A DNA stretch of 64,000 nucleotides from positions 49,194-113,193 of the forward strand of contig CAVVAA010000009.1 in the NCBI GenBank assembly GCA_963746115.1, given 5' to 3'. The DNA is from an uncultured Actinomycetes bacterium (GTDB taxonomy: Bacteria > Actinomycetota > Thermoleophilia > Gaiellales > JAICJC01). The notes below the pieces were generated by a model. It saw nothing but the letters and a program-made list of their open reading frames with translations, made no database searches and was not told the DNA's origin. Made by a program: the position numbers and the translations under genes. Below are positions 603 through 16,601 of this stretch, one piece after another (position 1 is the first letter of the stretch; each line of letters begins with the position of its first letter).

Positions 603-2235
603 CGGACGTGTGCGCGTAGGCGGCCGCGAGGCCGGGCGCGAGATAGTCGGGCAGGTTGGCCTCGCCCGCGAGCGTCGCCAGGAAGGTGCGGTCGTCGTCG
701 GCGGTGAGGCCGTCGAGCGTGAGCGGCTGAAGGACGCTCGAGAGCGGCGGCTGGGCCGCGAGCAATCGATCGCTCGGGAGCACCGAGACCCCGCCCGCGG
801 GATGGGTGCGCATGGCGCGGTCGGTGTGCTCGATCTCGTCCAGGACGAGCGTCGGCCCTGCCGGCGGGGCCTCCGCGGCGACCAGCCCCGGGACGGCCGC
901 GACCACCGCCGGCTCGAGCGCCCTGGCGAGCTCCGGCAGGTTCGCGAGCGCATCGGACAGCGTCGATCGCGCCTGGGCGAGGCTGACGACGGCGACGTCG
1001 GGGTCGGCGCCCGCGAGGGCGAAGTTCAGGAGGCGGGTACGACCGCCGATGCGGACGCTCTCGCCGGTGCTCGTGAACGGCTCGACCAGGTGCGGCTGGC
1101 CGCAGGCGGCGACGCCGCCGATCATGACGAGCACGAGGTCGCGCTCGCCGGCCGCGATCAGGCCGGCGTAGGGGTCGGCGCTGGTGCCGGCGACGGCGAT
1201 CAGGTCGGCGCGTTTCCCGGCCTCGATCGAGCCGATCGCCGCATCCCAGCCCAGCATCCGCGCGGGCGTCGACGTCGCCATCGCCACCAGCTCGCGATCG
1301 GTGAAGATCGGCCCGCCGGCGGCGTGGGCGCTCACGAGCTGTGCGACCTTCAGCTCGCCGAGCAGGTTCTTGCTGCCCGACGGCGCCCAGTCCGAGCCGA
1401 GCCCGATCGGAACGCCGCTCGCCTTCATCGCCGCGACGTCCGCGGTGGCTCCGTAGAGCAGCAGGTTCGAGAGCGGCGACCACACCATCGCCGCTCCGTG
1501 CGCGGCGAAGACGGCGATGTCGGCCGGCTGGAGGCCGACGCTGTGGATCCCGATCAGGTGGTCGGAGATCGCCCACGTCCCGTCGGGAAGCTGCAGCGCC
1601 TGGAAGTGGCGGCGGGCGCTGTCGTCGGTGCCCTCGGCGAGATGCAGCAGCAGGCGGCGGTCGCGGGCGAGCTCGGCCGCGAACGCCGTGACGTCCGCCG
1701 CGGCAACGTCGGGGATCCGGCTGTGGGCGGGCGGGAGCGCGGGATCGTCAGGCTCCTCGACCGTGCGCACGACGCCGTGGTAGAACCGGGCGATGCCGGC
1801 GTTCGAGTAGAGCGCGATCCCCTGGCTCGTCGTCACCCCGGCGACGAGGCACTTCGCCTCGACGAAGCGCACGAGCGCCGGCACGAGGCTGGGCGTCTTT
1901 CCGAGCACCTGCATCGGGCCGCTGATCAGGCGGCGGTAGTCCGGCCCGGCCGACCACTGGCCGCGGTTCGTGAAGGCGCGCGGCACCTGCCAGAGCTGCA
2001 GGCAGTTGTAGCTCAGGTGGTTGTGGAGCTCGATCAGGCCCGGGTAGATCGTGCCCGCCGTGCGCAGCGCGGCGACCGACTCGAAGCCTGCTGGCGGCGG
2101 CACGCCGGCGGGGGCGACGGCGGCGATGTCGTTGCCGGCGATGTAGACGACGCCGTCGGGAAGGACGGTGCCCGCGCCGTCCATCGTGACGACACGGCCC
2201 CTGATCGCCGCACGGCCTGCCGCGGGGGCGTTCAC
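583..2235 (-). CDS. amidohydrolase family metal-dependent hydrolase
   Basis: ORF 583..2427. IRGRVVTMDG N-terminus, HxH motif (IELHNHLSY), GSDWAPSGS and AGKRADL motifs. The start is set at GTG 2235 and is uncertain. Confidence 0.8.
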   Translation of the reverse strand: MNAPAAGRAAIRGRVVTMDGAGTVLPDGVVYIAGNDIAAVAPAGVPPPAGFESVAALRTAGTIYPGLIELHNHLSYNCLQLWQVPRAFTNRGQWSAGPDYRRLISGPMQVLGKTPSLVPALVRFVEAKCLVAGVTTSQGIALYSNAGIARFYHGVVRTVEEPDDPALPPAHSRIPDVAAADVTAFAAELARDRRLLLHLAEGTDDSARRHFQALQLPDGTWAISDHLIGIHSVGLQPADIAVFAAHGAAMVWSPLSNLLLYGATADVAAMKASGVPIGLGSDWAPSGSKNLLGELKVAQLVSAHAAGGPIFTDRELVAMATSTPARMLGWDAAIGSIEAGKRADLIAVAGTSADPYAGLIAAGERDLVLVMIGGVAACGQPHLVEPFTSTGESVRIGGRTRLLNFALAGADPDVAVVSLAQARSTLSDALANLPELARALEPAVVAAVPGLVAAEAPPAGPTLVLDEIEHTDRAMRTHPAGGVSVLPSDRLLAAQPPLSSVLQPLTLDGLTADDDRTFLATLAGEANLPDYLAPGLAAAYAHTSGAARPG

Positions 2236-2463
2236 GGGGGGAACACTAGTGGTGGGCCAGGACGCCCTTGCGTGCAGCCCTGCGCCCGCCCCCGGGGCGC
2301 GGTCGTCGGTGCCAGCGCCACCCGGGCGGCGGCCCGCCCCCGGGAGGCCCGGAGTCGGCGGACTCCGGCGGATCCGTCTCGGCGAGGTCGCGCAGGAGCA
2401 GCACGAGGATGGCGATCCCCGGCACATGCAGGCTCGCCACGACCGCGTAGATCCAGAGGTTGC

Positions 2464-2919
2464 TCAGCCGCCGTCACCCCCGCCGTCACCGCCCGGGCCG
2501 TCTCCGCCGCCGTCACCGCCCGGGCCGCCGTCACCCCCGCCGTGGCCGTGACCGGGCTTGGGGCCGTGGCCGTGACCCGGCTTTGGGCCGGGGCCGGGTG
2601 GCGGCGGTGCGGCGACCGTCTGCGTCTCTGTCACGGTGACCGGGTCGGTGACCGTTCTCGTAACGGTCTCGGTCACCGTGCGCGCGGCGGCGTTCGCCTG
2701 CTGCGCCGACAGCGTCTCGGTACGGACGTGGCCGGCGACCGTGACCGTCCGGTCGACCGCCGCCTGCAGCGGCGCGCGGGCGGTCGTCGTCACCGTCTCC
2801 ACCGAGAGCACGTGGCCCGTCTGCCTGCTGCCCGCGCTCACACCGGCGAGCAGCCCCAGCATCAGACATGCCAGACCGCCCGAGATGGCCATCGCAAACC
2901 GTGTGGGACTCACACCCAT
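2464..2919 (-). CDS. membrane-anchored low-complexity protein (T/V repeats, His-Gly repeats, Gly/Asp tail)
   Basis: N-terminal hydrophobic helix AMAISGGLACLMLGLLAGV, then TVTETVTRTVTDPVTVTETQTV, two copies of GPKPGHGHG, and a GGDGGPGGDGGGDG tail. High GC3. Confidence 0.55.
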   Translation of the reverse strand: MGVSPTRFAMAISGGLACLMLGLLAGVSAGSRQTGHVLSVETVTTTARAPLQAAVDRTVTVAGHVRTETLSAQQANAAARTVTETVTRTVTDPVTVTETQTVAAPPPPGPGPKPGHGHGPKPGHGHGGGDGGPGGDGGGDGPGGDGGGDGG

Positions 2920-3008
2920 CGTGCCTCCCGCCCATCGCCCTGCCCGCCTACACCCGACACATTACCCGAGCCGGGCCGGGATCGGAAAGGAGCTCCCTCA
3001 CCCGGGGG

Positions 3009-3037
3009 TTGACCCATGGCATCGGCGCATGTTCAAT
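3009..3037 (+). promoter_or_regulatory. candidate sigma-70-type promoter for the sulfotransferase operon
   Basis: TTGACC, 17 nt spacer, TTCAAT, in a locally lower-GC intergenic stretch upstream of 3160. Confidence 0.3.
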
Positions 3038-3159
3038 TTGATTCCCGGATCTTCACCATCCCCGTGTGATCCGGCCCATGGAGGCGAGATGAGGCACGTT
3101 CCACGCCGTCCCCGCACGCCCGGGAGCGGCATCCACCATTGCCACGCGCGGGCAGGCGC

Positions 3160-4140
3160 ATGAAGCCGCCGATCCTGCTCACGGGCATGCACCGCTCCGG
3201 CGGGAGCTGGGTCGCCAAGATGATCGAGGGCGGCGGCGGCGTCGTGCACGTCAACGAGCCGTTCAACCGCCGCCATCCGCCTGGCCTCACGCCCGGGATC
3301 CTGCACGTGCCGCCGCCGCTCGCCTACCAGCACGTCGGCGAGCACAACGAGGCCGAGCACCTGGACGGATTCCGCAACATGCTCGATCTGCGCTACGACC
3401 TGGTCGCCGAGCTGCGCACGAACCACGGCGTCTACGACCTGGCGAAGGCCGCCAAGTACCTGACCGCGTTCACGTACGGCCGCGCCCGTGGCATGCGAAC
3501 GCTGATCGACGATCCGTACATGGTGTTCGCGACCGAGTGGCTGGCAGATCGCCTCGACTGCCGCGTGGTCATGCTCGTCCGCCACCCCGCGGGGATCGTC
3601 TCCAGCCTGAAGCGGATCGGGGCCGGTTGGAGCGACAACCTGCCCGACATCGCCGCGCAGCCGGAGCTGGTCGGCCGCTACCTGCAAGACCACGCCGCCG
3701 AGCTCGAACGCGCCGCCAACGAGCCGCTCGACCCGGTCGGCCACGGCGCCCTGCTCTGGCTCCTGATCCACTCGGCGATCGCGCAGCAGCTCGACCGCCA
3801 CCCGGAGTTCATCCTCGTCCGCTACGAGGACCTGGCCATGGATCCCGAGGCGGGGTTCCGCGACCTCTTCGAGCGCCTCGACCTGCCGTACACGGCCCGG
3901 GCCGAGAAGACGGTGCGTGAGGGCAGCATGGCGGGGCCGGCGGCGCGCCACAATCCGTGGGGCCGCGTGGGCCTCGGGCGCACGGCCTACCAGCCCATGG
4001 ACAGCAAGGCGAACGCCTGGGCTTGGCGCCGGCGCCTCGCACCCGACGAGGCCGCCGCGGTGATCGCGGCCACCCGGCCCGTCGCCGAGCGGTTCTACCG
4101 CCCCGACGAGCTCGCGGTCGACCGCGAGCACGCCGCCTAA
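3160..4140 (+). CDS. sulfotransferase family protein
   Basis: ORF 3139..4140. PAPS 5-PSB-like motif LLTGMHRSGGSW and 3-PB-like VMLVRHPAGIVSS. The start is taken at MKPPILL. Confidence 0.8.
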   Translation: MKPPILLTGMHRSGGSWVAKMIEGGGGVVHVNEPFNRRHPPGLTPGILHVPPPLAYQHVGEHNEAEHLDGFRNMLDLRYDLVAELRTNHGVYDLAKAAKYLTAFTYGRARGMRTLIDDPYMVFATEWLADRLDCRVVMLVRHPAGIVSSLKRIGAGWSDNLPDIAAQPELVGRYLQDHAAELERAANEPLDPVGHGALLWLLIHSAIAQQLDRHPEFILVRYEDLAMDPEAGFRDLFERLDLPYTARAEKTVREGSMAGPAARHNPWGRVGLGRTAYQPMDSKANAWAWRRRLAPDEAAAVIAATRPVAERFYRPDELAVDREHAA

Positions 4141-4178
4141 CTCGCACGGATCACCGGCGGGTGTCACAGCCCGGCCCT

Positions 4179-4218
4179 CCGTCTCGTCATGTGGGTAACG
4201 ACCCATTCGACGAGACGG
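4179..4218 (+). other. intercistronic stem-loop just upstream of the epimerase RBS
   Basis: CCGTCTCGTC ... GACGAGACGG 10-bp stem with an inner TGGGT/ACCCA stem. The GGAGGA RBS follows directly. Confidence 0.4.
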
Positions 4219-4228
4219 AGGAACCGAA

Positions 4229-5200
4229 ATGCGTGTGTTCGTAGCAGGGGCGACCGGTGTGATCGGGAGGCAGCTCGTGCCGCAGCTGGTGGAGGCCGGC
4301 CACACCGTGGTCGGCAGCACCAGGTCGAGCACGAAGGCGGTGTGGTTGGCGGAGGCGGGCGCCAAGGCGGCCGTGATGGATCCGCTCGACCGCTCCGAGG
4401 TGATGACCGCCGTGATGCGAGCCGAGCCCGATGTGGTCGTCCACGAGCTGACGGCGCTTCGCGGCCAGGCCGACCTGCGCCGGTTCGACCGCTCGTTCGC
4501 GGAGACGAACGAGCTGCGCACCCGCGGGATCGACCTCCTGCTGGAGGCCGCGCAGGCGGCCGGGGCGACCCGGTTCCTGGCGCAGAGCTACACGGGCTGG
4601 CCGAACTCCCGCGAGGGCGGGCCGGTGAAGACGGAGGAGGATCCGCTCGACCCGACACCGCCGAAGGCGATGCGGGAGTCGCTCGCGGCGATTCGCCACC
4701 TCGAACAGGTCGTGGCCGGCGCACAGGGGATCGAGGGGCTCGCGCTCCGCTACGGGGCGCTGTACGGGCCGGGGACGTCGATGGCCGAGGAGTATGCGGC
4801 ACTGATCCGGCGGCGGAAGTTCCCGGTCATCGGCGACGGTGCCGCCGTGTGGTCGTTCGTCCACGTCGCGGATGCCGCGGCCGCGACGGTGGCCGCGCTC
4901 GACCACGGCGGGCCCGGCGTCTACAACATCGTCGACAACGATCCGGCCCCGGTCTCGGAGTGGCTTCCGTACTTCGCGGCCGTGCTGGGCGCGAAGCCGC
5001 CCCGGCACGTTCCCGCGTGGATCGGGCGGCTCGCCGCCGGGGAGGTCGGCGTCGTCATGATGACCGGGTCGCGCGGCTCGTCGAACGCGAAGGCGCGCCG
5101 CGAGCTGGGCTGGGAGCCGGCGCATCCGAGCTGGCGCTCCGGGTTCGCCGAGACGGCGGCCGGCGCCCCGCGCGTCCGGGCGCGAACCCACGAGCGATGA
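4229..5200 (+). CDS. NAD-dependent epimerase/dehydratase family (extended SDR)
   Basis: MRVFVAGATGVIGRQLV Rossmann GxxGxxG motif. Intact 323-aa ORF. Confidence 0.85.
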   Translation: MRVFVAGATGVIGRQLVPQLVEAGHTVVGSTRSSTKAVWLAEAGAKAAVMDPLDRSEVMTAVMRAEPDVVVHELTALRGQADLRRFDRSFAETNELRTRGIDLLLEAAQAAGATRFLAQSYTGWPNSREGGPVKTEEDPLDPTPPKAMRESLAAIRHLEQVVAGAQGIEGLALRYGALYGPGTSMAEEYAALIRRRKFPVIGDGAAVWSFVHVADAAAATVAALDHGGPGVYNIVDNDPAPVSEWLPYFAAVLGAKPPRHVPAWIGRLAAGEVGVVMMTGSRGSSNAKARRELGWEPAHPSWRSGFAETAAGAPRVRARTHER

Positions 5201-6156
5201 CCGCGCAGGCGATACCCTCCGGACGCATGGGTCGCGCCTCCGGCCATGGCGACGACGTCGCCATCCGCACGTCCGGGCTCGGCAAGCGCTACGGCGCGAC
5301 CGTCGCGCTCGCCGGGCTCGACCTCGCCGTCTCCGCCGGCGAGGTGTACGGATACCTGGGGCCGAACGGCGCGGGGAAGACCACCACGATCCGGCTCGTC
5401 CTCGGGCTGCAACGCCCGAGCGAGGGGGACGCGGCGATCTTCGGGATCGACGCCTGGCGCGACCCGGTCGAGGCGCATCGGCGGGTCGCCTTCGTGGCCG
5501 GCGAGCCGATGCTCTGGCCGGCGCTCACCGGCCTCGAGAGCCTCGAGTTCCTGAGCCGCCTGCGCGGAGGCGTCGACGAGGCGTACCGCCGGACGCTGAT
5601 CGACCGGTTCGAGTTCGACCCGCGCAAGCGCGTGCGCGACTACTCCAAGGGCAACCGGCAGAAGATCCAGCTGATCGCCGCGTTCGCGGCCCGCCCCGAC
5701 GTGCTCGTCCTGGACGAGCCGACGAGCGGCCTCGACCCGTTGATGGAGGCGGCCTTCCGCGACACGGTCGCCGAGTCCAAGACGGCCGGACAGGCCGTGT
5801 TCCTCTCGTCTCACATCCTGAGCGAGGTCGAGGCGCTGTGCGACCGTGTGGGCATCCTCCGCGAGGGGCGGCTGGTCGAGGAGGGGACGCTCGCGGACCT
5901 GCGCCACCTGTCCGCGCGGGTCGTCGAGGCGACGTTCGACGGGCCTCCGCCCGACCTGGTCCTGCCGGATGGCGTCACGTCGACGCCCGTCGGGGAGAGC
6001 GCGGTGCGCTTCGACGTGCGCGGCCCGGTCGGCCCGCTGATCGACCGCCTGGCCGGCACGGGGCTGATCGCGCTGGTCAGCCGGGAGCCGACGCTCGAGG
6101 AGCTCTTCCTGGCCCACTACGACCGCGGCGGCGAGCATGCAGGGATCGCCCGCTAG
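5197..6156 (+). CDS. ABC transporter ATP-binding protein
   Basis: Walker A GPNGAGKTT, signature YSKGNRQK, Walker B VLVLDEPTSGLD. The ATG overlaps the epimerase stop (ATGA). Confidence 0.9.
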   Translation: MTAQAIPSGRMGRASGHGDDVAIRTSGLGKRYGATVALAGLDLAVSAGEVYGYLGPNGAGKTTTIRLVLGLQRPSEGDAAIFGIDAWRDPVEAHRRVAFVAGEPMLWPALTGLESLEFLSRLRGGVDEAYRRTLIDRFEFDPRKRVRDYSKGNRQKIQLIAAFAARPDVLVLDEPTSGLDPLMEAAFRDTVAESKTAGQAVFLSSHILSEVEALCDRVGILREGRLVEEGTLADLRHLSARVVEATFDGPPPDLVLPDGVTSTPVGESAVRFDVRGPVGPLIDRLAGTGLIALVSREPTLEELFLAHYDRGGEHAGIAR

Positions 6157-7732
6157 CGCGGTCGTCCGGCACGCGCTGCGCGGCGAGCGGGTGCGCCTGG
6201 GCGTGATCGGGCTGATCGCGGTGCTCTACACGCTCGCGAACGTGGTCGGATACCGCCAGGCCTACCCGACCCATGCCGCGCGGGAGCAGTTCGCGCGGGC
6301 GTTCTCGGACAACATCGCCCTGCGCCTGTTCTACGGCGTCCCCCACGACCTGGCCAGCGTGGGCGGCTTCTTCGAGTTCCGGGCGATGGGGATGCTGGCC
6401 ATCCTGGCGTCGGGCTGGGCGGTGTTCGCCGCCGTGCGCGCCCTGCGGGGCGAGGAGGACGCCGGCTGCTACGAGCTGATCCTGGCCGGGGCGATCGGGC
6501 GCGGCGGTACGGTGGTCGCCGTTCTGGCTGCCCTTGCCCTCGAGTGCTCGGCCCTGTTCGCGCTGCTCTGGGTCGTCCTGCTCGTCTTCGCCGTCGGCTC
6601 GGGCGACATGACGGCTGCCCAGTCGGCGATGGTCTGCGCGGCCATCGCCGGGCCGGCCGCCGTATTCGCCGCCGCCGGAGCGCTCGCCTCCCAGCTCGCG
6701 CCCACGCGGCGCGCCGCCCAGGCCGGGGCGGGGCTCGCGCTCGCCGTTGCGGTCTTCTTCCGCATCGTGGCCGACATCGGCCACGGCATCGGCTGGGTGC
6801 GCTGGATCTCGCCCATCGGGTGGGTGGAGCAGGTGCGGCCGGTCACCGGCGCGCGCCCCGCCGTCCTGCTTCTGTTCGCGGCCGCCGCGCCGCTCCTCGC
6901 CGCCGTCGCCGTGCTCGTCGCGCGCAACCGCGACCTGGGCGCGAGCGTGCTCTCGCGGCGGGCGACCGCCCGGTCGCGGACGGGCCTCCTCGGCTCTCCG
7001 GCGCAGGCCGCTCTGCGGGGTGAGCTGCCATCGCTGGCGGCGTGGGTCGCCGGCACGGGCCTCTTCGCGTTTGCGCTGGGGGCGTTCGCCCACAGCGTCG
7101 CTGAGGAGATGCGCAAGGTCACGATCCGGACGTACGGGCTCGACATCACCACGGCGGCGGGATACCTCGCTGCCGTCTTCGGGATCTTCGCGATGGTGGT
7201 CGCGCTCTACGCGGTCAGCCACGTCGGCGGCCTCCGCGACGAGGAGTCGTCGGGGCGCTTGGAGACGATGTTCGCGCTGCCGGTCGCCCGGCGCTCGTGG
7301 TTCGGCGGGAGGCTGCTCGTTGCGGCCGCGGCGACGGCCCTGCTCTCCCTGGCGGTCGGCGTGCTTGCCTGGGCCGGCGCAGCCGTCACGAGCGGGGGCG
7401 TCGGGTTCGGCGCGATGGTGACGGCGGGGGCGAACTGCATCGCCGTCTCCGTGCTCTTCCTCACGCTCGGGGCGCTCGTGTTCGCATGGGCGCCGCGGCC
7501 GAGTCCCGGCGCGGCGTTCGCGCTCGTGGGCGTCGCGTTCCTGTGGGAGCTCGTCGGCGCGCTGGTGGGCGCGCCGTGGTGGCTGCTCACGATCTCGCCC
7601 TTCCATCACGTCACGCAGGCGCCGCTCGTCGCGGTCGACCGCCGCGGCACGGCCGTCATGCTGATCGTCGCCGCGGTGGCCGCGGCGGCGGCCGTCGAGC
7701 GCTTCGCCCGGCGCGACCTGCAGACCGGGTGA
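6137..7732 (+). CDS. ABC-2 type exporter permease (duplicated 6-TM module)
   Basis: 531-aa polytopic ORF overlapping the ATPase gene by 20 nt. Confidence 0.8.
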   Translation: MQGSPASAVVRHALRGERVRLGVIGLIAVLYTLANVVGYRQAYPTHAAREQFARAFSDNIALRLFYGVPHDLASVGGFFEFRAMGMLAILASGWAVFAAVRALRGEEDAGCYELILAGAIGRGGTVVAVLAALALECSALFALLWVVLLVFAVGSGDMTAAQSAMVCAAIAGPAAVFAAAGALASQLAPTRRAAQAGAGLALAVAVFFRIVADIGHGIGWVRWISPIGWVEQVRPVTGARPAVLLLFAAAAPLLAAVAVLVARNRDLGASVLSRRATARSRTGLLGSPAQAALRGELPSLAAWVAGTGLFAFALGAFAHSVAEEMRKVTIRTYGLDITTAAGYLAAVFGIFAMVVALYAVSHVGGLRDEESSGRLETMFALPVARRSWFGGRLLVAAAATALLSLAVGVLAWAGAAVTSGGVGFGAMVTAGANCIAVSVLFLTLGALVFAWAPRPSPGAAFALVGVAFLWELVGALVGAPWWLLTISPFHHVTQAPLVAVDRRGTAVMLIVAAVAAAAAVERFARRDLQTG

Positions 7733-7735
7733 GCG

Positions 7736-8083
7736 TCAGCCGGCGGCGGCGCGGCGGCGGGCTTCGAGCCGCCGGCCGATGATCGCGATCGCGACGGCCG
7801 CGGCCGCGAGCTGCGCGGGGCTGAGACCGCCTGCGCGCGTGTGCGCCTCGCGGGACGCGAGCACCGCGCCGTAGGAGCGGTCGGAGAGAAGCGACCAGCG
7901 CGACCGGGCCGAGAGCATCGACCCCAAGGAGGCGAAGGAGCCGACCGACCAGGCCGAGCACGCGCTTCCGATCGACCCGACGGAGAGCACCGAGCCGACC
8001 GACCCGATCGAGAGGACAGAGCCGGTCGATGCGATCGAGAGCAGCGAGCGGTCGGAGCGGATCGACCAGCGTGACGTGGGCAC
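7736..8083 (-). CDS. tail-anchored protein with 23 consecutive Ser-x-x triplets
   Basis: Ser at every third residue from S4 to S70. C-terminal hydrophobic segment AAAAVAIAIIG followed by an Arg-rich end. GC3 is high in this frame and low in the antisense ORF. The gene lies 10 nt downstream of the CPBP gene. Confidence 0.6.
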   Translation of the reverse strand: MPTSRWSIRSDRSLLSIASTGSVLSIGSVGSVLSVGSIGSACSAWSVGSFASLGSMLSARSRWSLLSDRSYGAVLASREAHTRAGGLSPAQLAAAAVAIAIIGRRLEARRRAAAG

Positions 8084-8093
8084 GCCCGTAGTC

Positions 8094-9521
8094 CTAACGC
8101 ACCGCGGTGAGGCCGCCGACCTGCGGACGCCGATCGGCCGGGCCGACGACCACGGGCGCCGTGCGGCGCAGCGTGAGCCCCACCGCGACGAGGGCGGCGG
8201 AGGCTCCGAGCAACGTGAGCAGCCCCTGGTCGACGATCGCCTGCGTCGTCGTGGTCAGGTAGGGCAGCGGGGTCAGCGTCGCCACCATGAGCAGGCCGGC
8301 CGTGCCCGCCGCGAGGCGGGGACGCTGGTCGAGCCCTCCGATCGCCAGGCCGACCAGGCCGAATCCGATCAGCGTGTACCCGAGCCCGACGAGGGGGACG
8401 AGGGCCGAGCTGTCGAGCAGGACGCCGAGGCGGGCGGCGATGACGAGCGCGCATCCGGCCGCGCCGGCCAGCGACGTCACCGCCGAGCTCTTCCAGGCCC
8501 GTGGGGCGCCGAGGAGCAGCCACGCCAGCAGGGGCAGGGCGAAGGCGATGATCACGATCCTGCCGGCGGTGAGGAGCCCCGCGCCGCCGATACCCAGCCC
8601 GAGTGGCGCGGACTCGATGACGAGGCCGGCCGCAAACGCACAGCCGGTCAGCACCCAGGTCGCGGGATGGGCGTCGCGGCGCGCGAACCTCGCGGACAGC
8701 ACATCGGCGGCGCGGGCCGCCCGCGCGAGCGCCCTCGCTGCCGTCTGCCGGGCGGCGACGGCCGACCCCTCGCGGGTGACCACGAGGCTGAGGACGACGG
8801 CCGCGAGCGCCGGCGCGACCAGGAATCCGGCCCCCGAGAACAGGGACGCGGCCGTGTTCTGGCCTGCGTGGAGCGCGATGCCGGTGCGTACCGACCCTGT
8901 CCGGCGGCGGATCCAGCACAGCAGGATGCCCTCGCAGGTGAACGGGATGAGCACGCCGGACACGCCGTGGAGGGAGGCCCACACGAGCGACGACATCACC
9001 GCCGCCGGCCAGAAGCCGAAGCGCTGCCACAGGCCGGAGAGCAGGAACCCGCGCATCGAAAGCTCCTCCATCCAGGGCGCCGCGACGACCGCCATCCAGG
9101 TGAGGAGCAGGACCGCATACGTGTGGCGGTGGTGCAGCGACACGCTCGTCGTGCCGCGCGCGCCGAGGGCGTCGCCGAGCGCCGTCAGGAGCGGCAGGAG
9201 CAGGATGATGAAGCCGAGCTGCACGAGCACCGCGATGCCGACGCGGCGCGAGCGGGCGCGGCCGATGACCCCAGCGGGCACGCCCCCGCGGGGAAACGCG
9301 ATCCTCCCGGACAGCGCGATCGTGCCCACGCAGAGTGTGACGTTCGCCGCGATGGCGACCACTGCCATGACCAGGGTCCGGCCGCCGATCTCGGCCAGCA
9401 GAAACGCCGACACCTGCGACGCCAGGTAGAGCACCACGCACGCGGCGGCGGCCGCGACGAGCAGCCACCACCGCGCGGGCGCGCCCACGCCGTCCGGCTC
9501 GGTGGTCGCTACCAGGGCCAT
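8094..9521 (-). CDS. CPBP family intramembrane glutamic endopeptidase with an extra C-terminal polytopic domain
   Basis: PWMEELSMRGF (EExxxR) and ASLHG / ALHAGQN His motifs. Many TM segments. Confidence 0.8.
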   Translation of the reverse strand: MALVATTEPDGVGAPARWWLLVAAAAACVVLYLASQVSAFLLAEIGGRTLVMAVVAIAANVTLCVGTIALSGRIAFPRGGVPAGVIGRARSRRVGIAVLVQLGFIILLLPLLTALGDALGARGTTSVSLHHRHTYAVLLLTWMAVVAAPWMEELSMRGFLLSGLWQRFGFWPAAVMSSLVWASLHGVSGVLIPFTCEGILLCWIRRRTGSVRTGIALHAGQNTAASLFSGAGFLVAPALAAVVLSLVVTREGSAVAARQTAARALARAARAADVLSARFARRDAHPATWVLTGCAFAAGLVIESAPLGLGIGGAGLLTAGRIVIIAFALPLLAWLLLGAPRAWKSSAVTSLAGAAGCALVIAARLGVLLDSSALVPLVGLGYTLIGFGLVGLAIGGLDQRPRLAAGTAGLLMVATLTPLPYLTTTTQAIVDQGLLTLLGASAALVAVGLTLRRTAPVVVGPADRRPQVGGLTAVR

Positions 9522-9601
9522 TACCCCACGATACGTGCGGGACGGCGCGGTCGGCTACTCCCCATTGGGGTTCGATGGGATGCCGGGGCGCGTGCCGGCG
9601 G

Positions 9602-10198
9602 TCACGAGCCCGAGCTCCACGGGAGCTCCCTCCAGGATTCCGGGCGCTCGACGCGCCAGCGGCCTCGAAGCGGCGCGTTCGCCTCCGCGTCCGAGCTCGT
9701 GTCCCGCTCGACGCTCGCGCCGTAGCGCAGGGCGACGTCCGAGCGCCTGTAGTCGCGCCAGAAGGTGTCGTCGTTGAGGTCGCGGTTCCCGGCGCAGACG
9801 AGGACGCACGGCCCCTCACCCGCTCCGACGAACGTGTGCGCGGCGCCGGGCGGGCAGTGCACGAAGTCCCAGGGGTGCAGGTGACGCTCCTGGTCCTCGA
9901 TGATCAGGATGCATTCGCCCATCACGACGAGGAAGTCCTCCTGCACCGACTCCGCGTGGTAGACGTCGGCTGCCCGTCCCGGCCGCAGGACGCGCAGGAC
10001 GAATCCCGCCCCGGGCTTGACGTACTCGCTGAGATCCGGCCGACCGCGCAACACGAAGTCGTCGGACTCGAAGATGCAGCAGGACTGCGTCGCATCGTTG
10101 TTCATCCAGGCGGCGTCTCGTGCATTGACGACGAACCACCCCGCCGTGACGGGTGCGAGACCCGACTCGACCTGTTCGAGTCGTGCTTCTTCGATCAT
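9602..10198 (-). CDS. cupin domain protein
   Basis: ORF 9602..10222. Cupin core YHAESVQEDFLVVMGECILIIEDQERHLHPWDFVHCPPGAAH. ATG at 10198 is preceded by GGGAGG. Confidence 0.75.
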   Translation of the reverse strand: MIEEARLEQVESGLAPVTAGWFVVNARDAAWMNNDATQSCCIFESDDFVLRGRPDLSEYVKPGAGFVLRVLRPGRAADVYHAESVQEDFLVVMGECILIIEDQERHLHPWDFVHCPPGAAHTFVGAGEGPCVLVCAGNRDLNDDTFWRDYRRSDVALRYGASVERDTSSDAEANAPLRGRWRVERPESWRELPWSSGS

Positions 10199-10307
10199 CG
10201 GAACCTCCCAGAACAGGCGCAATCATACGAGCGGGATTGGGCCGCTCGCTCAGGGAGCCCTCGACGGCCTCATGTCAATTGGCGGGGCGCGAACGTATGC
10301 TCGAGGC

Positions 10308-11105
10308 ATGCTGAGCGCGGACGAGCCGGGGGCGGGGGCGGGCTCGGCCGTGCGGCTGCGCGGGGTCATGCGGCGGTTCGGCGACAAGGTCGCGGTGGCG
10401 GGCGTCGACCTCGATGTGCCGCACGGCTCGTTCTTCGGTCTCGTCGGACCGAACGGGGCGGGGAAGACGACCCTGCTCTCGATGACGACCGGCCTGTTGC
10501 GCCCGGACGCGGGCAGCATCGAGGTCGCCGGAGTCGAGGTCTGGAACGATCCGGCGGCGGCGAAGGCGCGGATCGGCGTCGTGCAGGACACGCCGGCGCT
10601 CTTCGACCGCCTGACCGGGAGCGAGCTGCTCGCCTTCTACGGGGCGCTGCGGCGACTCGATCCGGCCACCACACGGGAGCGCAGCGAGGAGCTTCTGCGG
10701 GTGCTCGACCTGGCTGTCGACGCCGACCGGCTCGTCGTGGACTACAGCCTCGGAATGACCAAGAAGCTCGCGCTCGCCGCGGCGCTGCTGCACTCCCCGC
10801 GCGTCCTCTTCCTGGACGAGCCGTTCGGGGCGATCGACCCGGTCTCGACGAACGTGATCGAGCAGCTACTGCACCGCTTCGTGGCGGGCGGCGGCACGAT
10901 CGTGTTCTCGAGTCACGTGATGGACGTGGTCGAGCGGCTGTGCGACCGCGTCGCGGTGATCGTGCGCGGCCGGATCGTCGCGGCGGGAACGCAGGAGGAG
11001 GTCGCGGCAGGCGACGACCTGCGCACGGCGTTCTTCAAGCTCGTCGGCGCGCGCGAGGATGTCGGCCTGGCGGAGCTCGGATGGCTTGGGTCTTCGTCCG
11101 ACTGA
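10308..11105 (+). CDS. ABC transporter ATP-binding protein
   Basis: Walker A GPNGAGKTT, signature YSLGMTKK, Walker B VLFLDEPFGAID. Confidence 0.9.
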   Translation: MLSADEPGAGAGSAVRLRGVMRRFGDKVAVAGVDLDVPHGSFFGLVGPNGAGKTTLLSMTTGLLRPDAGSIEVAGVEVWNDPAAAKARIGVVQDTPALFDRLTGSELLAFYGALRRLDPATTRERSEELLRVLDLAVDADRLVVDYSLGMTKKLALAAALLHSPRVLFLDEPFGAIDPVSTNVIEQLLHRFVAGGGTIVFSSHVMDVVERLCDRVAVIVRGRIVAAGTQEEVAAGDDLRTAFFKLVGAREDVGLAELGWLGSSSD

Positions 11106-12634
11106 AGTGGCGGCTGCTCGCGAACGCGGGCGCGTCAGGCCGCGAGGAGGCGCTCGGCTGGCTCGCGCGTGCCATCGGCCTGCTGCTCGCCGTGGTCGGC
11201 GCGGGCGACCTCGCGACCGCGCCCCGCCACGGTGGCGCCGGGCTCGTCGCGGTCTTCGTCGCGGTCGCTGTCGCCTGGATCATGCTCCCGCTGCTCATGG
11301 GGTCAGACCGCACGCTGTCCGTGGACCGGCTCGCGTCGCTACCGCTGCGGCGGCGCGACCTGGTGCTCGGCCTCTTCGCGGCGTCGCTCGTGGGTGCGCC
11401 GCCGCTCGCGACGCTCGTCTTCCTGTCCGGCGCGGTCTTCGCGTACGGGCACGGCGCGGCCGCGACGGTGCTCGCGGCGGCCGACGTGGTCGTCATGACG
11501 GCACTCGCCATCGCGGGCGGCCGCGCAGTCTCGGCCGGCCTCGCCGCCGCGGTGCACTCCCGGCGGGGGCGCGACCTCGCCTCCGTCGTGCTTGCGGTCG
11601 TCTCGGCAGGCGGGTACATCGCCTGGCGGGCGTCGGCGGCGCTCGCCTCCGAGGTGGACCGCCTCCGGCCGTCCCGCCTCACCGACGCGCTCTCGTGGAC
11701 GCCGCCGGGCGCGCTCGCGCGATCGATGGCCGACGCGCACGCCGGCGCGCTTCCGGCCGCAACCGGCCGGCTGGCCTACGGGATCGCGACGCTCGTCGTG
11801 GTCGGGTGGCTGTGGGCGCACGCCCTCGGCCGCCAGCTGACCAACCCGGCTGCGACCGCGCCTCGTGGAGGCGAGCGGCGCTCCGCGCGTACACCGCGCA
11901 GACGTTTGAGCACACCGGGCGGGGCGGTGTGGCTGAAGGATCTGCGCTACCTGTGGCGGACCCCCGTGCAGCGGGCGAACGTGATCACGGGCGTCGTCAC
12001 CTCGGGCTTCGTGATGCTGCCGCTGCTTTCGGGCAGGTCGGACATCCTCCCGTTCGCCGGGGCTGCGGTGGCGTTCTTCCTCATGTCCAACCTGTCCGCG
12101 AATCTGTTCGGGGTCGACGGCGAGGGATTCGGGGCCTACGTGCTGACCGGCGTCGACCCGCGGACACTCCTGCGGTCGAAGGCCCTGGCGGTCGCGACGG
12201 TGGTGGGAGCGATCGCCGTGGTCGCCTGCGTTGCCGGCGCCGCCGTGTCGGGCGCGTGGGGCGAGCTCGCGAGCGCGCTTCTCGTAACGGCGGCGGTGAT
12301 CCTCCTGGCGGGCGGGACAGGGATGTTCGTCTCGGTGCGCTCGCCGTATGCGGTCGACATGACCACTCCGACGTTCGGCCGTGCCCGGCGCCCGCGCGGG
12401 AGCGGAAACGCGGGAGTCGGGGTCGTCGCGCTCGTGTTCGAGACGGTCGTGATCGGCCTGCTCGCCCTGATCGTGGTGATCGGCAAGGACGCGCTCGGCG
12501 TCGGCACCCTGCCGGGCGCCGTCGTCGGGCTCGTCGTGGCGCTCGCGGTCGCGATCGGCGGCCTGCGGCTCGCGGCCGGGCATCTCGCGGCGCACCTGCC
12601 CGAGACGTTGCTCGCGCTCTCGCCCCGGCACTGA
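11081..12634 (+). CDS. putative ABC exporter permease
   Basis: In-frame tail of ORF 9575..12634 starting at MAWVFVRLKW. Polytopic. Overlaps the ATPase gene by 25 nt. Confidence 0.7.
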   Translation: MAWVFVRLKWRLLANAGASGREEALGWLARAIGLLLAVVGAGDLATAPRHGGAGLVAVFVAVAVAWIMLPLLMGSDRTLSVDRLASLPLRRRDLVLGLFAASLVGAPPLATLVFLSGAVFAYGHGAAATVLAAADVVVMTALAIAGGRAVSAGLAAAVHSRRGRDLASVVLAVVSAGGYIAWRASAALASEVDRLRPSRLTDALSWTPPGALARSMADAHAGALPAATGRLAYGIATLVVVGWLWAHALGRQLTNPAATAPRGGERRSARTPRRRLSTPGGAVWLKDLRYLWRTPVQRANVITGVVTSGFVMLPLLSGRSDILPFAGAAVAFFLMSNLSANLFGVDGEGFGAYVLTGVDPRTLLRSKALAVATVVGAIAVVACVAGAAVSGAWGELASALLVTAAVILLAGGTGMFVSVRSPYAVDMTTPTFGRARRPRGSGNAGVGVVALVFETVVIGLLALIVVIGKDALGVGTLPGAVVGLVVALAVAIGGLRLAAGHLAAHLPETLLALSPRH

Positions 12635-12641
12635 CCCAAAA

Positions 12642-13517
12642 CTACTCGCTCAGGAAGTCCTCGACGAGCCGCGCGTAGTCGTCCGGCTCCTCGAGGTGGG
12701 CGCAGTGTGCGCTCTGCTCGAACACGTGCATGCGCGCGTCCGGGATGCCGTGGGTGATCGTCTCGGAGCACGACGGCGTGATCTCGTCATAGCGACCGCA
12801 CGTCACGAGCGTCGGGACATCGATGCGGCCCAGGTCGGCCGTGCGATCCCACTCCCGCAGCCGGCCGATCACGTCGAACTCGGTCGGGCCGTTCATGGTC
12901 AGGTAGACCTGGTTGCCCTCCATCTGCTCGCCCGAGAGCACCAGCGCCTCCGGCCACGGGTCGAGCCGGCACAGGTGGCGGTGGTAGAAGACCTCGACCG
13001 CGGCCTGGTAGTCGGGGTGGTCGTACTCCTCCTTCGCGCCGAGCTCGATCAGCGTCGTGCGGTGCGGCTCGGGCAGCTGCTCGATCAGGCCGCGGGCGCC
13101 GGCCATGAACTCGGGGATGCTCGCCGAGGTGCTTGCGAGCACGAGCCGCTCGACGCCGGTGGTTCCCCGGGCCATGTACTCGATCGAGAGCCATCCGCCC
13201 CACGACTGCCCGAGCAGGTGGCAGCGCTCGAGCCCGAGGGCGGCGCGCACCTGGTCGACCTCCTCGACCGCCCGGTCGACCGTCCACAGGGACGCGTCGT
13301 CGGGGCGATCCGAGCGGCCACAGCCAAGCTGGTCGTACACGACCACCGGCCGGTGGTCGGCGAGCCGCTCGGCAAGCGGGATCATGTAGTAGCTGGCGGC
13401 GCCCGGGCCGCCGTGCAGGAGCAGGGCGGGCGTGCCGTCGCTGGGCCCGAGCCGGGCGGTCCAGACGCTCCCGCCCGTGACCTCGACGCGCCGCTCCTCG
13501 GCCTCCTCGATCCTCAT
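12642..13517 (-). CDS. proline iminopeptidase family alpha/beta hydrolase
   Basis: HGGPGA oxyanion motif, GQSWGG nucleophile elbow, C-terminal [10 protein letters not shown]. Confidence 0.85.
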
Positions 13518-13527
13518 CGCGGCGACA

Positions 13528-15159
13528 CTACAGGAGATATCGCCGCGAGTAGGCGACCTCGGCGACCGGGGTGCAGGTGACCGGCTCCCCGTCGAGCGTC
13601 ACGGTCTCCGCCGCCGGGTCGACGACGATCGTGCCGGTGCGGCTGTTGCCGACCATGTCCGCCGCGGTGAGCTCGCGGCAGTCCGACACCCGTGCCCGCT
13701 CGCGGGTCGTGGGCAGGTCGGCGGCCATCGCCGAGCCGGCCAGGAACGCGAGCGAGACCTGTCCCGGCGCCGCGCCCGTCCCCGCGATCTGGGGCCCGAC
13801 CCGGACGGGCTCGGTCATCATCGTCGTCGCGCCGCCCGCCCCCGATGCGCCCCAGGCCGACATGCCCGGCCTTGAGGACGAGCTCGGGCCGCACCGGGAA
13901 GAGGTCGGGTCGCCACATGACGAGGTCGGCGAGGCGGCCCTCGCGCAGCGAGCCGACGTGCGCCGCCAGGCCGTGCGCGATCGCCGGGTTCACGGTCACC
14001 TTCGCCAGGTAGCGCAGCACCCGCTCGTTGTCGTCCGCGCCCGCCGCCGCCGCGCTCGGCCTTCATCGCGGCGGCGCACTGGAAGGCCCGCCGGACGGTC
14101 TCGCTGATCCGGCCCATGCCCTGGGAGTCGGACGAGAGGATCGGGATCACGCCGAGGTCGTGCAGCACGGTCTCGGCGGCCATCGTCCACGCCCGCACCC
14201 GGGCCCGCAGGATGGCGGCGTCGCCGGCGCGGGCGCCGGGCTCGAGCAGGTGCACGGCCGCGACCATCGCCAGGTGCTCCGCCTCGGCGCCGACCCCGAA
14301 CGGCACCGTCGGATTGGTGGACGAGGTCAGGAGGCGCTCCCGGCCCGCCAGGCTGAGCAGGTCGGGCGCGTGGCCGCCGCCGACGCCTTCGATGTGGTAG
14401 AGGTGCGCCGTCCGGCCCTCGAGCACGCGGGCGGTGTCGGCCGCCCGCAGGGCCTCGTTCAGGCCGTCGGTGTGGATGGCGAGCTGGACGTCATGGCGGT
14501 CGGCGACGTCGAGGGCGCAGCGCAGCTGCTCGGGCCCGGCGGCGACGTCCTCGTGGATCTTGAGCCCGGCCGCCGCCGGCGGCGAGCGACTCTTCGACGC
14601 CGTCCGGCCGCGACGCCGACGCCCGCACCAGGAAGGCGACGTTCAGCGGCGTCTCCTCGAGCGCCGACCAGGCGACACGCAGGCCGGCGGCCGGGTTCGC
14701 GCCCAGGTTCCAGATCGGTCCGTAGTCCTGCGCCACAAGGGTGGTGACGCCGCCGGCGAGGGCCGCCTCGCCGAGCTGGGGCGAGAGCCAGTGCATGTGG
14801 CAGTCGACCGCCCCCGGCGTGATCACCATCCCGCGGGCATCGAGCAGCGCGGTCTGCGAGTCGAGGACGACGTCGATCCCGTCCATCGTGTCGGGGTTGC
14901 CGGCCCGGCCGATCGCGCACACGCGCCCGCCCCGGATGCCGATTGACGTCCGGCGAATGCCGATCGCCGGGTCGAGCACCAGGCCGCCGACGACCGCGAT
15001 GTCGACGCCGCCGCGCTCGGCCCGCACGCCCAGCCCGTCGCGATGGGTGCCGCCCCACCCGGGAACGATCTCGTCCGGGCCGCCGGCGTCGTCGCGCTCC
15101 GGCGTCACCCAGAGGTCGCCGTCGCCGAGCGCGATCCGCTCATCCGCCGGCATCGGCAT
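13528..15159 (-). pseudogene. ureC: urease alpha subunit, reading frame broken at about 14575, 14040 and 13865
   Basis: Pieces lie in ORFs 14491..15201, 13818..14426, 13514..14020 and 13528..13863. Ni-site motifs are present: DCHMHW, GLKIHED, AIHTDGLNE, YHIEGVGGGHAPD, SSDSQGMGR. Confidence 0.8.
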
Positions 15160-16534: not shown

Positions 16535-16557
16535 GCGGTGACACCCTATCAGTATTC

Positions 16558-16601
16558 GAACACTGTTTGCATAGAACGTCGTACCATGATAGAACACTGT
16601 T
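16558..16601. promoter_or_regulatory. two copies of GAACACTGTT (AACA-c-TGTT palindrome), candidate TetR operators
   Basis: Copies at 16558..16567 and 16592..16601 in the 99-bp tetR/MFS divergent intergenic region. Confidence 0.4.

Follow-up and report, generated by a model that had tools for sequence, protein, structure and literature searches.

The stretch of DNA analysed here (the window, 64,000 nucleotides) encodes on its minus strand a small protein with a Ser at every third residue, called SxxS below. Its gene lies directly behind that of a CPBP (Rce1-like) glutamic intramembrane protease, and the features of the locus are as follows.

7736..8083, minus strand: SxxS gene, 115 aa in translation, GTG start, stop codon (7736-7738) included
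7874..8074, minus strand: uninterrupted (Ser-x-x)x23 domain, residues 4-70, corresponding to the 67-aa family core SRWS...SDRS
8036..8074, minus strand: N-terminal Arg/Trp/acidic cap, S-RWS-IRS-DRS-LLS; family consensus SRWSLWSEDSxLS (alignments, column counts)
7968..8049, minus strand: three copies of a 27-nt (9-aa) tandem unit, encoding S-phi-L-S-I-G-S-phi-G units (Tandem Repeats Finder)
7874..7912, minus strand: C-terminal cap, S-ARS-RWS-LLS-DRS; family consensus SARSRWSLLSWRS (alignments, column counts)
7739..7831, minus strand: residues 85-115, a tail that varies among lineages, made of the hydrophobic helix GGLSPAQLAAAAVAIAIIG and, after it, the basic end RRLEARRRAAAG
8091..8096, minus strand: degenerate -10-like hexamer TAGGAC, located 7 nt ahead of the GTG start; it includes the stop codon of the CPBP gene (TAG) and lacks the final T
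8094..9521, minus strand: gene for a CPBP (Rce1-like) glutamic intramembrane protease of 475 aa whose additional C-terminal half is hydrophobic
8853..9113, minus strand: Rce1-like catalytic domain, residues 137-223, with EELSMR, WASLH and HAGQN
9602..10198, minus strand: cupin-domain gene, upstream of the CPBP gene, not conserved in relatives
5227..7732, plus strand: convergent ABC transporter operon (ATPase 5227-6156, ABC-2 permease 6137-7732), in a clade-specific conserved block
10308..12634, plus strand: second ABC transporter operon (ATPase and 517-aa permease), divergent from the cupin-CPBP-SxxS unit

Translation of 7736..8083 gives the 115-aa sequence quoted in an earlier note on this DNA. 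Re-reading of the sequence confirmed the central observation of that note, namely that Ser occupies every third position from S4 to S70 without a gap (23 triplets, 7874..8074). The charged caps that it described are also present, with RWS-IRS-DRS-LLS first and ARS-RWS-LLS-DRS last, and the period runs through both of them without a break. S77 and S88 lie outside the Ser run. By our own arithmetic, the probability of finding 23 in-phase Ser residues by chance is near 1e-28 at a Ser content of about 6%. A chance origin of the period is excluded, and hundreds of homologues show it as well.

The upstream neighbour had been identified as a CPBP protease with an unusual polytopic C-terminal half, and both parts of this description are borne out. 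The ORF matches Pfam PF02517 over residues 137-223 with 60.1 bits (cut-off 22.4, E=2.7e-16). Its motifs occur in order, EELSMR at 152-157, WASLH at 181-185 (W for F) and HAGQN at 218-222, so that EExxxR, (F/W)xxxH and HxxxN are all present as in other CPBP/Rce1-like proteins. It differs from these proteins by its hydrophobic C-terminal half of about 250 aa, which matches no family and whose hydrophobic segments lie in residues 307-452. The best NCBIfam match is a fused 'ABC permease/CPBP' family, and the curated sorting-protease models MrtS, MrtJ and Mrt_core give 22-27 bits, below their cut-offs of 75-130.

Between the TAG stop codon of the CPBP gene (8094-8096) and the GTG start of the SxxS gene at 8083, the spacing is 10 nt, as reported earlier. 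Because of this short gap, of the lack of a terminator-like site and of stop/start overlaps in relatives, we infer that CPBP and SxxS are co-transcribed in the window. On the other side, the stop codon of the ABC-2 permease lies 3 nt from that of SxxS, and the same arrangement is found at two related loci, L082 and L085. At the position of the cupin gene, relatives carry an alpha/beta hydrolase or an ABC operon instead; in L085, an ABC operon comparable to the second one of the window adjoins the CPBP gene.

Judged by its sequence and that of its homologues, ORF 7736..8083 is a genuine protein-coding gene. The choice of frame had been based on GC3, which is 0.92 in the SxxS frame (GC at codon positions 1/2/3 is 0.62/0.69/0.92) vs. 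0.53 in the antisense ORF 7841..8074, and the comparative coding signal across 80 homologous loci agrees with it. In these loci, the periodic Ser columns contain 1582 TCN and 142 AGY codons, with one column at 36 vs. 33. The S-frame has no stop codon, vs. 13-97 in each of the other five frames, and its amino-acid entropy is the lowest of the six (0.99 bits vs. 1.63-2.09). Nucleotide entropy within this frame decreases from codon position 3 to position 1 to position 2. Thus, the coding frame is supported by the maintenance of Ser via both TCN and AGY codons, by the absence of stops and by the lowest entropy of six frames. Coding on the antisense strand or in another frame was ruled out by the codon-family and entropy tests.

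Homologue searches place SxxS in a large family, so far without a name, whose small members (about 80-130 aa) occur across Actinomycetota. A word-indexed search returned 403 matches, and at 50% identity the family comprises 1267 clusters with E<=1e-3, including 638 with E<=1e-10. When the trimmed core alignment was used as the query in a scan of pattern-matched stretches in species-representative genomes, at least 585 loci were found to encode a relative (585 of the 600 stretches listed). The family occurs in Actinomycetes, Acidimicrobiia and Thermoleophilia, in genera that include Streptomyces, Rhodococcus, Kribbella, Cellulomonas and Micromonospora. Residues 4-70 of the window protein cover the whole family core profile (67 columns). 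A homologue search had been proposed earlier as a check, and the large family that it recovered has kept the Ser periodicity, with 96% Ser at the periodic position.

The earlier note had not recognised the repeat class, and indeed no Pfam or NCBIfam family, PDB relative or paper in the searchable literature corresponds to it. Pfam contains no family for the protein, and NCBIfam gave sub-threshold matches only. A profile search of the PDB recovered only synthetic (GST)n linkers, and literature searches with the Ser triplet repeat and the family motif strings found nothing relevant. The PADLOC defence library gave no match to SxxS, and PHROGs gave noise only. Domain fusions were considered as a functional clue and rejected: the long matches are over-called N-termini or frameshift fusions and contain no recurring Pfam domain. 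Annotation pipelines call SxxS genes just sporadically. The family therefore represents an annotation gap, with more than 1000 clusters across three Actinomycetota classes, including well-studied genera, and no Pfam or NCBIfam entry.

In 42 of 69 family loci, the last base of an ANNNT motif upstream of the start codon lies at -7 or -8, vs. a background of 1.65 per position. The end falls within -9..-6 in 46 of the 69, vs. 1-11 in control windows, and G at -14 and C at -1 are enriched. A -10 box located 7-8 nt ahead of the start codon in most copies points to a leaderless transcript with its own promoter. Family-wide, SxxS is a free-standing unit with heterogeneous neighbours and its own -10 box, from which transcription would start at or beside the start codon. 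The predicted leaderless arrangement, a TANNNT hexamer whose end lies about 6-8 nt from the start codon, with no Shine-Dalgarno spacing, is found family-wide (46/69 loci). In the window, the corresponding element is degenerate (TAGGAC), so that this copy of SxxS may rely on the CPBP promoter. The family resembles the leaderless small membrane proteins of actinobacteria in its -10 box just before the start, its small size, its uncharged core and its basic/aromatic flanks. These proteins form a general class rather than a family homologous to SxxS, and we know of none encoded by a leaderless mRNA that has a triplet Ser period.

The pairing of SxxS with a protease is limited to one lineage. A phmmer search found a CPBP gene within 8 kb at only 1 of 80 family loci, L001, which is the nearest to the source of the window, and a Pfam scan found an Rce1-like upstream neighbour in 1 of 78 cases. 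All-against-all clustering of the neighbours within 5 kb of the 80 loci gave a largest neighbour family common to at most nine loci. No conserved partner gene emerged from this clustering, from phmmer searches with the CPBP, cupin and ABC proteins of the window or from scanning the neighbours (78 upstream, 79 downstream) with Pfam. A regular expression for the CPBP motifs was discarded as unspecific, as it matched Arg/Glu-rich shadow ORFs and missed L001. The next-closest relatives carry SxxS in an asd...recR-ybaB-dnaX region, where CPBP is missing, and the nearest relative outside the clade, L002, has a homologous tail and no CPBP gene.

Within the clade formed by L001, L081, L082 and L085, to which the linkage is confined, the arrangement is stable. 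In the last three loci, the stop codon of a 474-aa CPBP orthologue overlaps the SxxS start (ATGA/GTGA), and ABC operons flank the pair. Identity within the clade is 77-79% for SxxS and 61-63% for CPBP. In this clade, CPBP and SxxS form a stable, probably translationally coupled operon. The two genes have stayed adjacent despite a CPBP divergence to about 62% identity, and a genuine functional link in the clade may be the reason. Of the earlier proposal of a protease with its partner, the stable operon is upheld in this clade, but the general reading is not supported. Recurrent linkage to CPBP genes as a general rule, which the earlier note had itself set as a test, is contradicted by the counts at 80 loci and 78 upstream neighbours and by the absence of a neighbour shared by more than nine loci. 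These comparisons do not support a general protease-substrate pair. The attractive neighbourhood of the window is a lineage-specific arrangement and calls for caution against generalising.

Conservation in the family defines the rules of the repeat. Among the 6488 cells of triplet position a, Ser accounts for 6230 and is replaced by Ala (152), Cys (68), Gly (17) or Thr (8). Position b is chiefly V, I, A, L or F, and position c chiefly G, L or A, with V, I and T nearly absent. The 67-residue domain therefore has a true three-residue structural period, with a small Ser at a, Val/Ile at b and Gly/Leu at c. It had been argued that the period fits neither an alpha-helix nor a beta-strand, and the hydropathy power agrees, with 54.9 at 120 degrees vs. 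2.0 at 100 degrees and 1.6-5.7 at 160-180 degrees. The sharp position rules (96% Ser, beta-branched b, Gly/Leu c, Thr excluded) imply three residues per turn.

At the next level, the sequences show triplets organised as 9-residue units of variable copy number. The lengths of the uncharged core are quantised (38-41, 47-50, 56-60, 65-67 and 73-76 aa), the indels in the family are multiples of 9 aa, and most members have 22-26 triplets. Alignment places the additional units in the first half of the core only, which fits a solenoid or a fibre better than a symmetric helical hairpin. The core contains no Pro, 12% Gly and 0.3% His. AlphaFold2 monomer predictions for two members, based on alignments of 121 and 108 sequences, did not give a confident fold for the repeat: pLDDT is 38-55, and the models differ, one member being drawn as helix and the other as coil. 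The structure is thus beyond present prediction, and SxxS is a good target for structural and small-protein biology in Actinobacteria.

Outside the repeat, a C-terminal helix is confidently predicted in both members. In the window protein, it spans residues 89-114 (pLDDT 85-90) and is associated with the RRLEARRR basic cluster of the C-terminus. Where a hydrophobic C-terminal anchor had been proposed earlier, a helix is thus predicted, but the tail is just marginally hydrophobic: its best 19-residue stretch scores 1.62 on the Kyte-Doolittle scale, with +4.8 kcal/mol as the summed Hessa dG. As a family trait the anchor does not hold, since a hydrophobic tail occurs in only 22 of 80 loci. The core itself is only marginally hydrophobic for a transmembrane segment (+1.4 kcal/mol as the median Hessa dG over 19 residues). 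The N-terminus of the window protein reads MPTSRWSIRSDRS and does not appear signal-peptide-like.

Our best guess from these sequence features is that SxxS is a self-associating, membrane-proximal repeat protein. The membrane-proximal part of this reading is drawn from the uncharged, Pro-free core, the Arg/Trp caps, the predicted C-terminal helix and the lack of a signal-peptide-like N-terminus. On or within the cytoplasmic membrane, Ser/Gly/Val/Ile/Leu cores would associate with one another into an assembly whose tightly packed polar seam is made by the invariant small Ser position, with the Arg/Trp caps placed at the membrane interface. In the lineage of the window, SxxS has an additional hydrophobic helix and a basic end at its C-terminus; its gene lies directly after CPBP, between two ABC-2 operons, and the two are probably co-translated. 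The CPBP link would be a lineage-specific recruitment into an envelope module and not the function of the family. Transmembrane alpha-helices do not show such a strict three-residue period with its own residue class at each position; the marginal hydrophobicity of the core and the low pLDDT of the repeat also count against this reading. Taken jointly, a genuine SxxS family, a free-standing leaderless gene, a self-associating membrane core and a lineage-specific CPBP link have, in our estimate, about an even chance of being right.

In an alternative explanation, which we consider possible but doubtful, CPBP cleaves or docks SxxS, for example at the linker before the C-terminal helix and its Arg-rich end, in the manner of CTERM-type sorting signals or of bacteriocin-immunity pairs. 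The close spacing in the window, the overlapping ATGA/GTGA codons in L081, L082 and L085, and the retention of the pair despite a CPBP identity of 61-63% fit this idea. So do the two flanking ABC-2 transporter operons, the fused 'ABC permease/CPBP' match of the protease and an SxxS tail made of a helix followed by a basic cluster. Against it, the rest of the family shows no linkage, and L002 has a homologous tail yet no CPBP gene. SxxS appears to have no signal peptide, unlike CTERM-type substrates, and the Mrt-type models remain far below their cut-offs. Moreover, SxxS is better conserved than the protease, and it is conserved phylum-wide, in contrast to strain-variable bacteriocins.

SxxS may instead adopt a new fold in which each turn takes exactly three residues, either a collagen-like or polyproline-II triplex or bundle or a beta-roll of 9-residue units; we see in it a minority prospect. 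Ser would take the axial position, which is sterically restricted, and only oligomers would adopt the structure. Several observations are consistent with such a fold: the three positions differ chemically and share one sharp periodicity of 120 degrees, the periodic position accepts only A, C and G and excludes Thr, the period continues unbroken through the charged caps, the number of 9-residue units varies, and AlphaFold fails on the monomer. As in collagen, polyproline-II and TLP-3 structures, the three-residue period of SxxS is unbroken and one of its positions is sterically restricted. An (x-x-Ser)n triplex can exist, since the TLP-3 environmental glycofibril is a triplex of x-x-Ser/Thr tripeptide repeats (bioRxiv 10.1101/2025.09.30.679562).

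Several differences count against this fold. The restricted residue is Ser and not Gly (17/6488), Pro is absent from the core, and positions b and c are bulky and hydrophobic, vs. the small residues modelled in TLP-3. The Pfam Collagen model does not recognise the family (1 of 121 SxxS members, E=0.08), and SxxS differs from the collagen/TLP-3 class by the apparent lack of an export signal and by having only 22-26 triplets in most members. We know of no triple helix that places Ser axially. To our knowledge, Gly is also far more abundant in polyproline-II bundles than in the SxxS core, where it represents only 12%. More broadly, it is conceivable, though we would not expect it, that SxxS represents a previously unseen architecture, a Ser-cored triplex or polyproline-II/beta-type assembly formed only on oligomerisation, encoded by an overlooked leaderless phylum-wide gene and having a conserved role in the cell, probably associated with the envelope.

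Compared with these readings, there is only a slim chance that SxxS is a scaffold for serial Ser modification (O-glycosylation, phosphorylation, dehydration) or a modified-peptide precursor. The small size of the protein would suit a precursor, and its triplet period recalls the Cys-Xaa-Xaa heterocycloanthracins (Haft 2009, PMC2674419) and the His-Xaa-Ser HxsA peptides. HxsA4 (NF038313) is the sole curated model that detects the family at all, weakly, in 103 of 121 members (best E=1.3e-7, still sub-threshold); like SxxS, it describes small bacterial proteins with Ser at strict period three. The window protein reaches 16.9 bits, however, far below the 55-bit cut-off, and His is nearly absent from the family core. 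Radical SAM domains, which adjacent HxsB and HxsC genes would provide, are absent from the 14 window genes scanned (spanning 583-18124), as are YcaO and Lan domains, and no conserved enzyme neighbour was found within 5 kb in the family.

With the heterocycloanthracin-type precursors, SxxS has in common a small ORF that gene callers easily miss and a nucleophilic residue at every third position. Such Cys-Xaa-Xaa precursors are strain-variable and lie beside cyclodehydratase, immunity and export genes, whereas the SxxS family is conserved phylum-wide without a conserved neighbour. It also differs from lanthipeptide and azoline precursors, as it has no recurrent enzyme neighbour and its entire 67-aa domain is conserved, with no layout of leader and variable core. 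The earlier suggestion of a generic O-glycosylation or phosphorylation scaffold is disfavoured by the replacements of Ser, which are Ala, Cys and Gly and nearly never Thr.

Finally, it is barely credible that the ORF is a by-product of a DNA repeat, an antisense gene or a mobile element: the sequence is of low complexity with 27-nt repeats, 68 of 80 loci carry a long antisense ORF, and gene callers often skip the gene or mis-start it, but Ser is preserved across codon families that do not interconvert, the S-frame alone is stop-free and low in entropy, and the -10 box and the start codon keep a fixed spacing. A mobile-element, phage or plasmid origin was rejected: tblastn with the low-complexity filter on found no SxxS in plasmids or phages, viral contigs yield one match in 2.9 million, and a search for flanking inverted repeats found none that were consistent. 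Between 6500 and 10500, Rfam yielded no match at E<=1. Within the limits of sequence analysis, the by-product reading is already refuted. Among the long matches to the family, one (P0123) consists of the C-terminus of CPBP fused to SxxS.

The window carries a single copy of the gene for the Ser-every-third-residue (SxxS) protein, immediately downstream of a gene for a CPBP, or Rce1-like, glutamic intramembrane protease. The features concerned are:

7736..8083, minus strand: SxxS gene, 115 aa
7874..8074, minus strand: its 23 Ser-x-x triplets
7968..8049: three copies of a 27-nt unit (Tandem Repeats Finder)
7841..8074: antisense reading frame
8094..9521, minus strand: CPBP protease gene, 475 aa

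The SxxS gene translates to MPTSRWSIRSDRSLLSIASTGSVLSIGSVGSVLSVGSIGSACSAWSVGSFASLGSMLSARSRWSLLSDRSYGAVLASREAHTRAGGLSPAQLAAAAVAIAIIGRRLEARRRAAAG. The serines occupy residues 4, 7, ... 70 without a break, as the earlier note had read them, and GC3 is 0.92 in this frame vs. 0.53 in the antisense one. The three copies of the 27-nt unit mean that the triplets form groups of 9 residues.

The choice of frame is upheld by the family. Codons of the 80 fetched SxxS loci were threaded onto the 67-column profile of the core, the family domain. At the periodic serine columns, TCN codons are found 1582 times and AGY codons 142 times, and one column splits 36 to 33. No single synonymous step interconverts these two families of serine codons; retention of serine across both therefore indicates selection on the amino acid. 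Mean amino-acid entropy is 0.99 bits in the serine frame, the lowest of the six, vs. 1.63-2.09 bits in the other five, which contain 13-97 stop codons vs. none. Nucleotide entropy is highest at the third codon position (1.33, vs. 0.82 at the first and 0.60 at the second). The antisense frame, present in 68 of the 80 loci, simply shadows the true gene. Judged by codon use and frame entropy, the SxxS gene is thus shown to be real and its frame truly coding.

The protein belongs to a widespread family. Of 5.8 billion proteins searched, 403 matched; every one is "hypothetical" and lacks a Pfam domain. An exhaustive search with the profile, run against 1.84 billion cluster representatives, recovered 1267 clusters with E<=1e-3, 638 of them with E<=1e-10, and the proteins are nearly all 84-230 aa long. 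Longer matches were considered as domain fusions and rejected, being over-called N-termini or frameshift fusions in which no extra domain recurs. The family is carried by, among others, Streptomyces, Kitasatospora, Kribbella, Micromonospora, Rhodococcus, Nocardia, Cellulomonas, and Demequina, and also by metagenome-assembled genomes (MAGs) of Nanopelagicales, Acidimicrobiia, and Thermoleophilia. S. griseus, Rhodococcus opacus DSM 43205, and Kribbella are cultured examples. Just one of the 80 loci, L020, comes from outside the actinobacteria by its label, a Rubrivirga sp. MAG. Its SxxS N-terminus is nearly that of L065, from an actinobacterium MAG, with the same neighbor sizes and gaps, and its assignment may be a binning error.

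The database clusters are tiny, with 1-8 member sequences, and the named entries, all "hypothetical protein" (e.g., WP_078954973.1 from S. griseus, A0A8J3ZLW4, WP_202867945.1), stand in one or two records, whereas a translated search that took one genome from each species turned up at least 585 loci, from which the 80 were fetched. This low-complexity gene seems often to be missed or mis-started by annotation pipelines. No Pfam family was matched by any of 121 members. The sole recurrent NCBIfam signal, found in 103 of the 121, is a resemblance to HxsA4, a His-Xaa-Ser repeat peptide, which stays below the curated cut-off (16.9 bits for the window protein, cut-off 55). A profile search of the PDB returned only synthetic (GST)n linkers, and a literature search on the motif strings found no paper containing them. 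The SxxS protein hence lies outside every curated family tested and its repeat class is rated new, which bears out the impression of an unusual repeat. We regard it as an overlooked phylum-wide small protein whose sequence code implies an unmodelled structure.

The family consensus core is SRWSLWSEDSxLSIASxGSVLSIGSVGSxLSIGSIGSAxSxLSVGSFASxGSALSARSRWSLLSxRS, and proline is absent from it. Residue counts for the first, second, and third residue of each triplet (positions a, b, and c) show that this large family carries a three-position residue code.

Residues by triplet position in 295 distinct SxxS sequences
Position a: S 6230, A 152, C 68, G 17, T 8
Position b: V, I, A, L, F predominate
Position c: G, L, A, W predominate; V, I or T almost absent

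Most members have 22-26 triplets, indels between members are multiples of 9 residues, and the uncharged core falls into length classes of 38-41, 47-50, 56-60, 65-67, and 73-76 aa. Most proteins stop 5-15 residues past the core, with an xRxVM-like motif at the end. A hydrophobic C-terminal segment with a basic end, like that of the window protein, occurs in 22 of 80, and Rhodococcus and Nocardia proteins have an acidic tail.

What structure such a repeat adopts can be approached from its periodicity. Hydropathy power is 54.9 at 120 degrees vs. 2.0 at 100 degrees and 1.6-5.7 at 160-180 degrees, so that the repeat fits neither an alpha-helical nor a beta-strand period, as had been proposed. AlphaFold2 gave the window protein a mean pLDDT of 57 (121 sequences); the repeat (38-55) was modelled partly as helix and only the C-terminal helix 89-114 was confident (85-90). 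For the S. griseus member (108 sequences), the repeat was coil at pLDDT 40-50 and the C-terminal helix was again confident. The core is uncharged and marginally hydrophobic, with a summed Hessa dG per 19 residues of +1.4 as family median and +2.3 to +4.4 for the window protein. Arg/Trp-rich triplets stand at both of its ends, in a way that resembles the interfacial capping of a segment of about 40-48 residues embedded in the membrane. Three features of the sequence argue instead for a three-residues-per-turn conformation, or for a repeat solenoid formed on oligomerisation: the period of 3 is exact, with three residue classes; it continues through the charged caps; and extra 9-residue units are inserted in the first half of the core only. 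The earlier note had also suggested a Ser modification scaffold. A generic Ser/Thr site is not supported, since the near-total exclusion of threonine at position a (8 vs. 6230 serines) points to a role in steric packing. The protein would self-associate and lie close to the membrane, with a packing role for its periodic serines. A triplex of (x-x-Ser/Thr) repeats has a precedent in TLP-3, an environmental glycofibril (bioRxiv 10.1101/2025.09.30.679562). However, the other two triplet residues of TLP-3 are small, its serine is glycosylated, and its source organism is unknown, so that TLP-3 is only a lead.

The upstream ORF is, from its motifs (EELSMR, WASLH, HAGQN) and its match to PF02517 at 60 bits (cut-off 22.4), a bona fide CPBP/Rce1-like protease. 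Its C-terminal half, residues about 240-475 (8094-8800, minus strand), is also hydrophobic, with segments at 307-342, 345-397, and 428-452; it matches no Pfam or NCBIfam model and is conserved in the 474-aa orthologues of the related loci L081, L082, and L085. The CPBP gene ends in a TAG stop, and 10 nt separate this from the GTG at which the SxxS gene starts. No terminator-like or sigma-70-consensus site lies in between, and co-transcription in the window is plausible. In L081, L082, and L085, which encode the close relatives P0007, P0003, and P0004, the Rce1-like gene is directly upstream and its stop codon shares an ATGA or GTGA with the SxxS start. The pair is bordered by ABC ATPase and ABC-2 permease operons in relatives as in the window, and the gene upstream of CPBP varies (a cupin in the window, an alpha/beta hydrolase or ABC operon in relatives). 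Identity to the window proteins within this clade is 61-63% for CPBP vs. 77-79% for SxxS; the pair has thus outlived considerable divergence, the small protein being the more constrained partner. In a 266-aa metagenome protein, P0123, the gene call joins an SxxS protein to the C-terminal half of a CPBP orthologue, probably through a frameshift or as an artefact caused by the stop-start overlap; here the two genes are seen paired on a further contig.

The next relatives, L002, L003, and L084 (encoding P0008), have the SxxS gene in an asd...PLP-decarboxylase...recR-ybaB-dnaX region, where no CPBP gene was found, although the L002 protein carries a homologous helix-plus-EARRR tail. Among the 80 loci, phmmer with the window CPBP matched L001, the locus nearest the source, alone, and Rce1-like proteins account for 1 of 78 upstream neighbors. 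The CPBP operon is hence specific to one clade: the local operon of the earlier note holds, and a general protease-substrate pairing is not supported.

No radical SAM, YcaO or Lan-type enzyme occurs among the products of the window genes scanned, which span 583-18124; these comprise a sulfotransferase, an epimerase, ABC transporters, a cupin, a hydrolase, urease remnants, and an MFS transporter. Two urease genes are interrupted:

13531-15153, minus strand: urease alpha homologue in four reading-frame segments, 74-91% identical to the intact 541-aa gene of L082
15158-15809, minus strand: urease gamma/beta gene broken in two

This is either a decaying operon or the result of assembly indel errors, in which case ORF boundaries elsewhere in the window should be read with care.

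Across the family, the neighborhood is not conserved. When ORFs within 5 kb were clustered all against all, no neighbor was common to more than 9 loci, apart from SxxS itself and its antisense shadow, and Pfam families number 102 upstream (n=78) and 123 downstream (n=79; the largest present in 6). No SxxS match was found in plasmids or phages, one was found in 2.9 million viral contigs, and the loci showed no consistent flanking inverted repeats and no Rfam match. In most loci the start codon lies 2-8 codons ahead of SRWS. In actinobacteria, a TANNNT box about 6-7 nt ahead of the start codon is a signature of leaderless mRNA. Just upstream of the SxxS start, a -10-type element occupies a sharply defined place: ANNNT ends at -7 in 27 of 69 loci and at -8 in 15 (background 1.65 per position), and it lies within -9..-6 in 46 of 69 vs. 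1-11 in control windows; G at -14 and C at -1 are also enriched. These promoter-like patterns indicate that SxxS genes are autonomous units with leaderless-type promoters family-wide. The -10 box of the window copy is degenerate (TAGGAC) and shares the CPBP stop codon.

The downstream neighbor is convergent in 48 of 79 loci, often with stop codons that almost touch, which implies overlapping 3' transcripts. Convergent gaps have a median of 10 nt at these loci and of 51 nt in 159 control convergent pairs (Fisher p=0.012, the loci not being phylogenetically independent), and in the window 3 nt separate the SxxS stop from that of the ABC-2 permease (7732-7738). In Rhodococcus wratislaviensis, a perfect 21-bp inverted repeat with a 4-nt loop (L019:7837-7882) lies between the upstream gene and SxxS; its terminator-like appearance would fit an SxxS gene that is transcribed separately in that genome.
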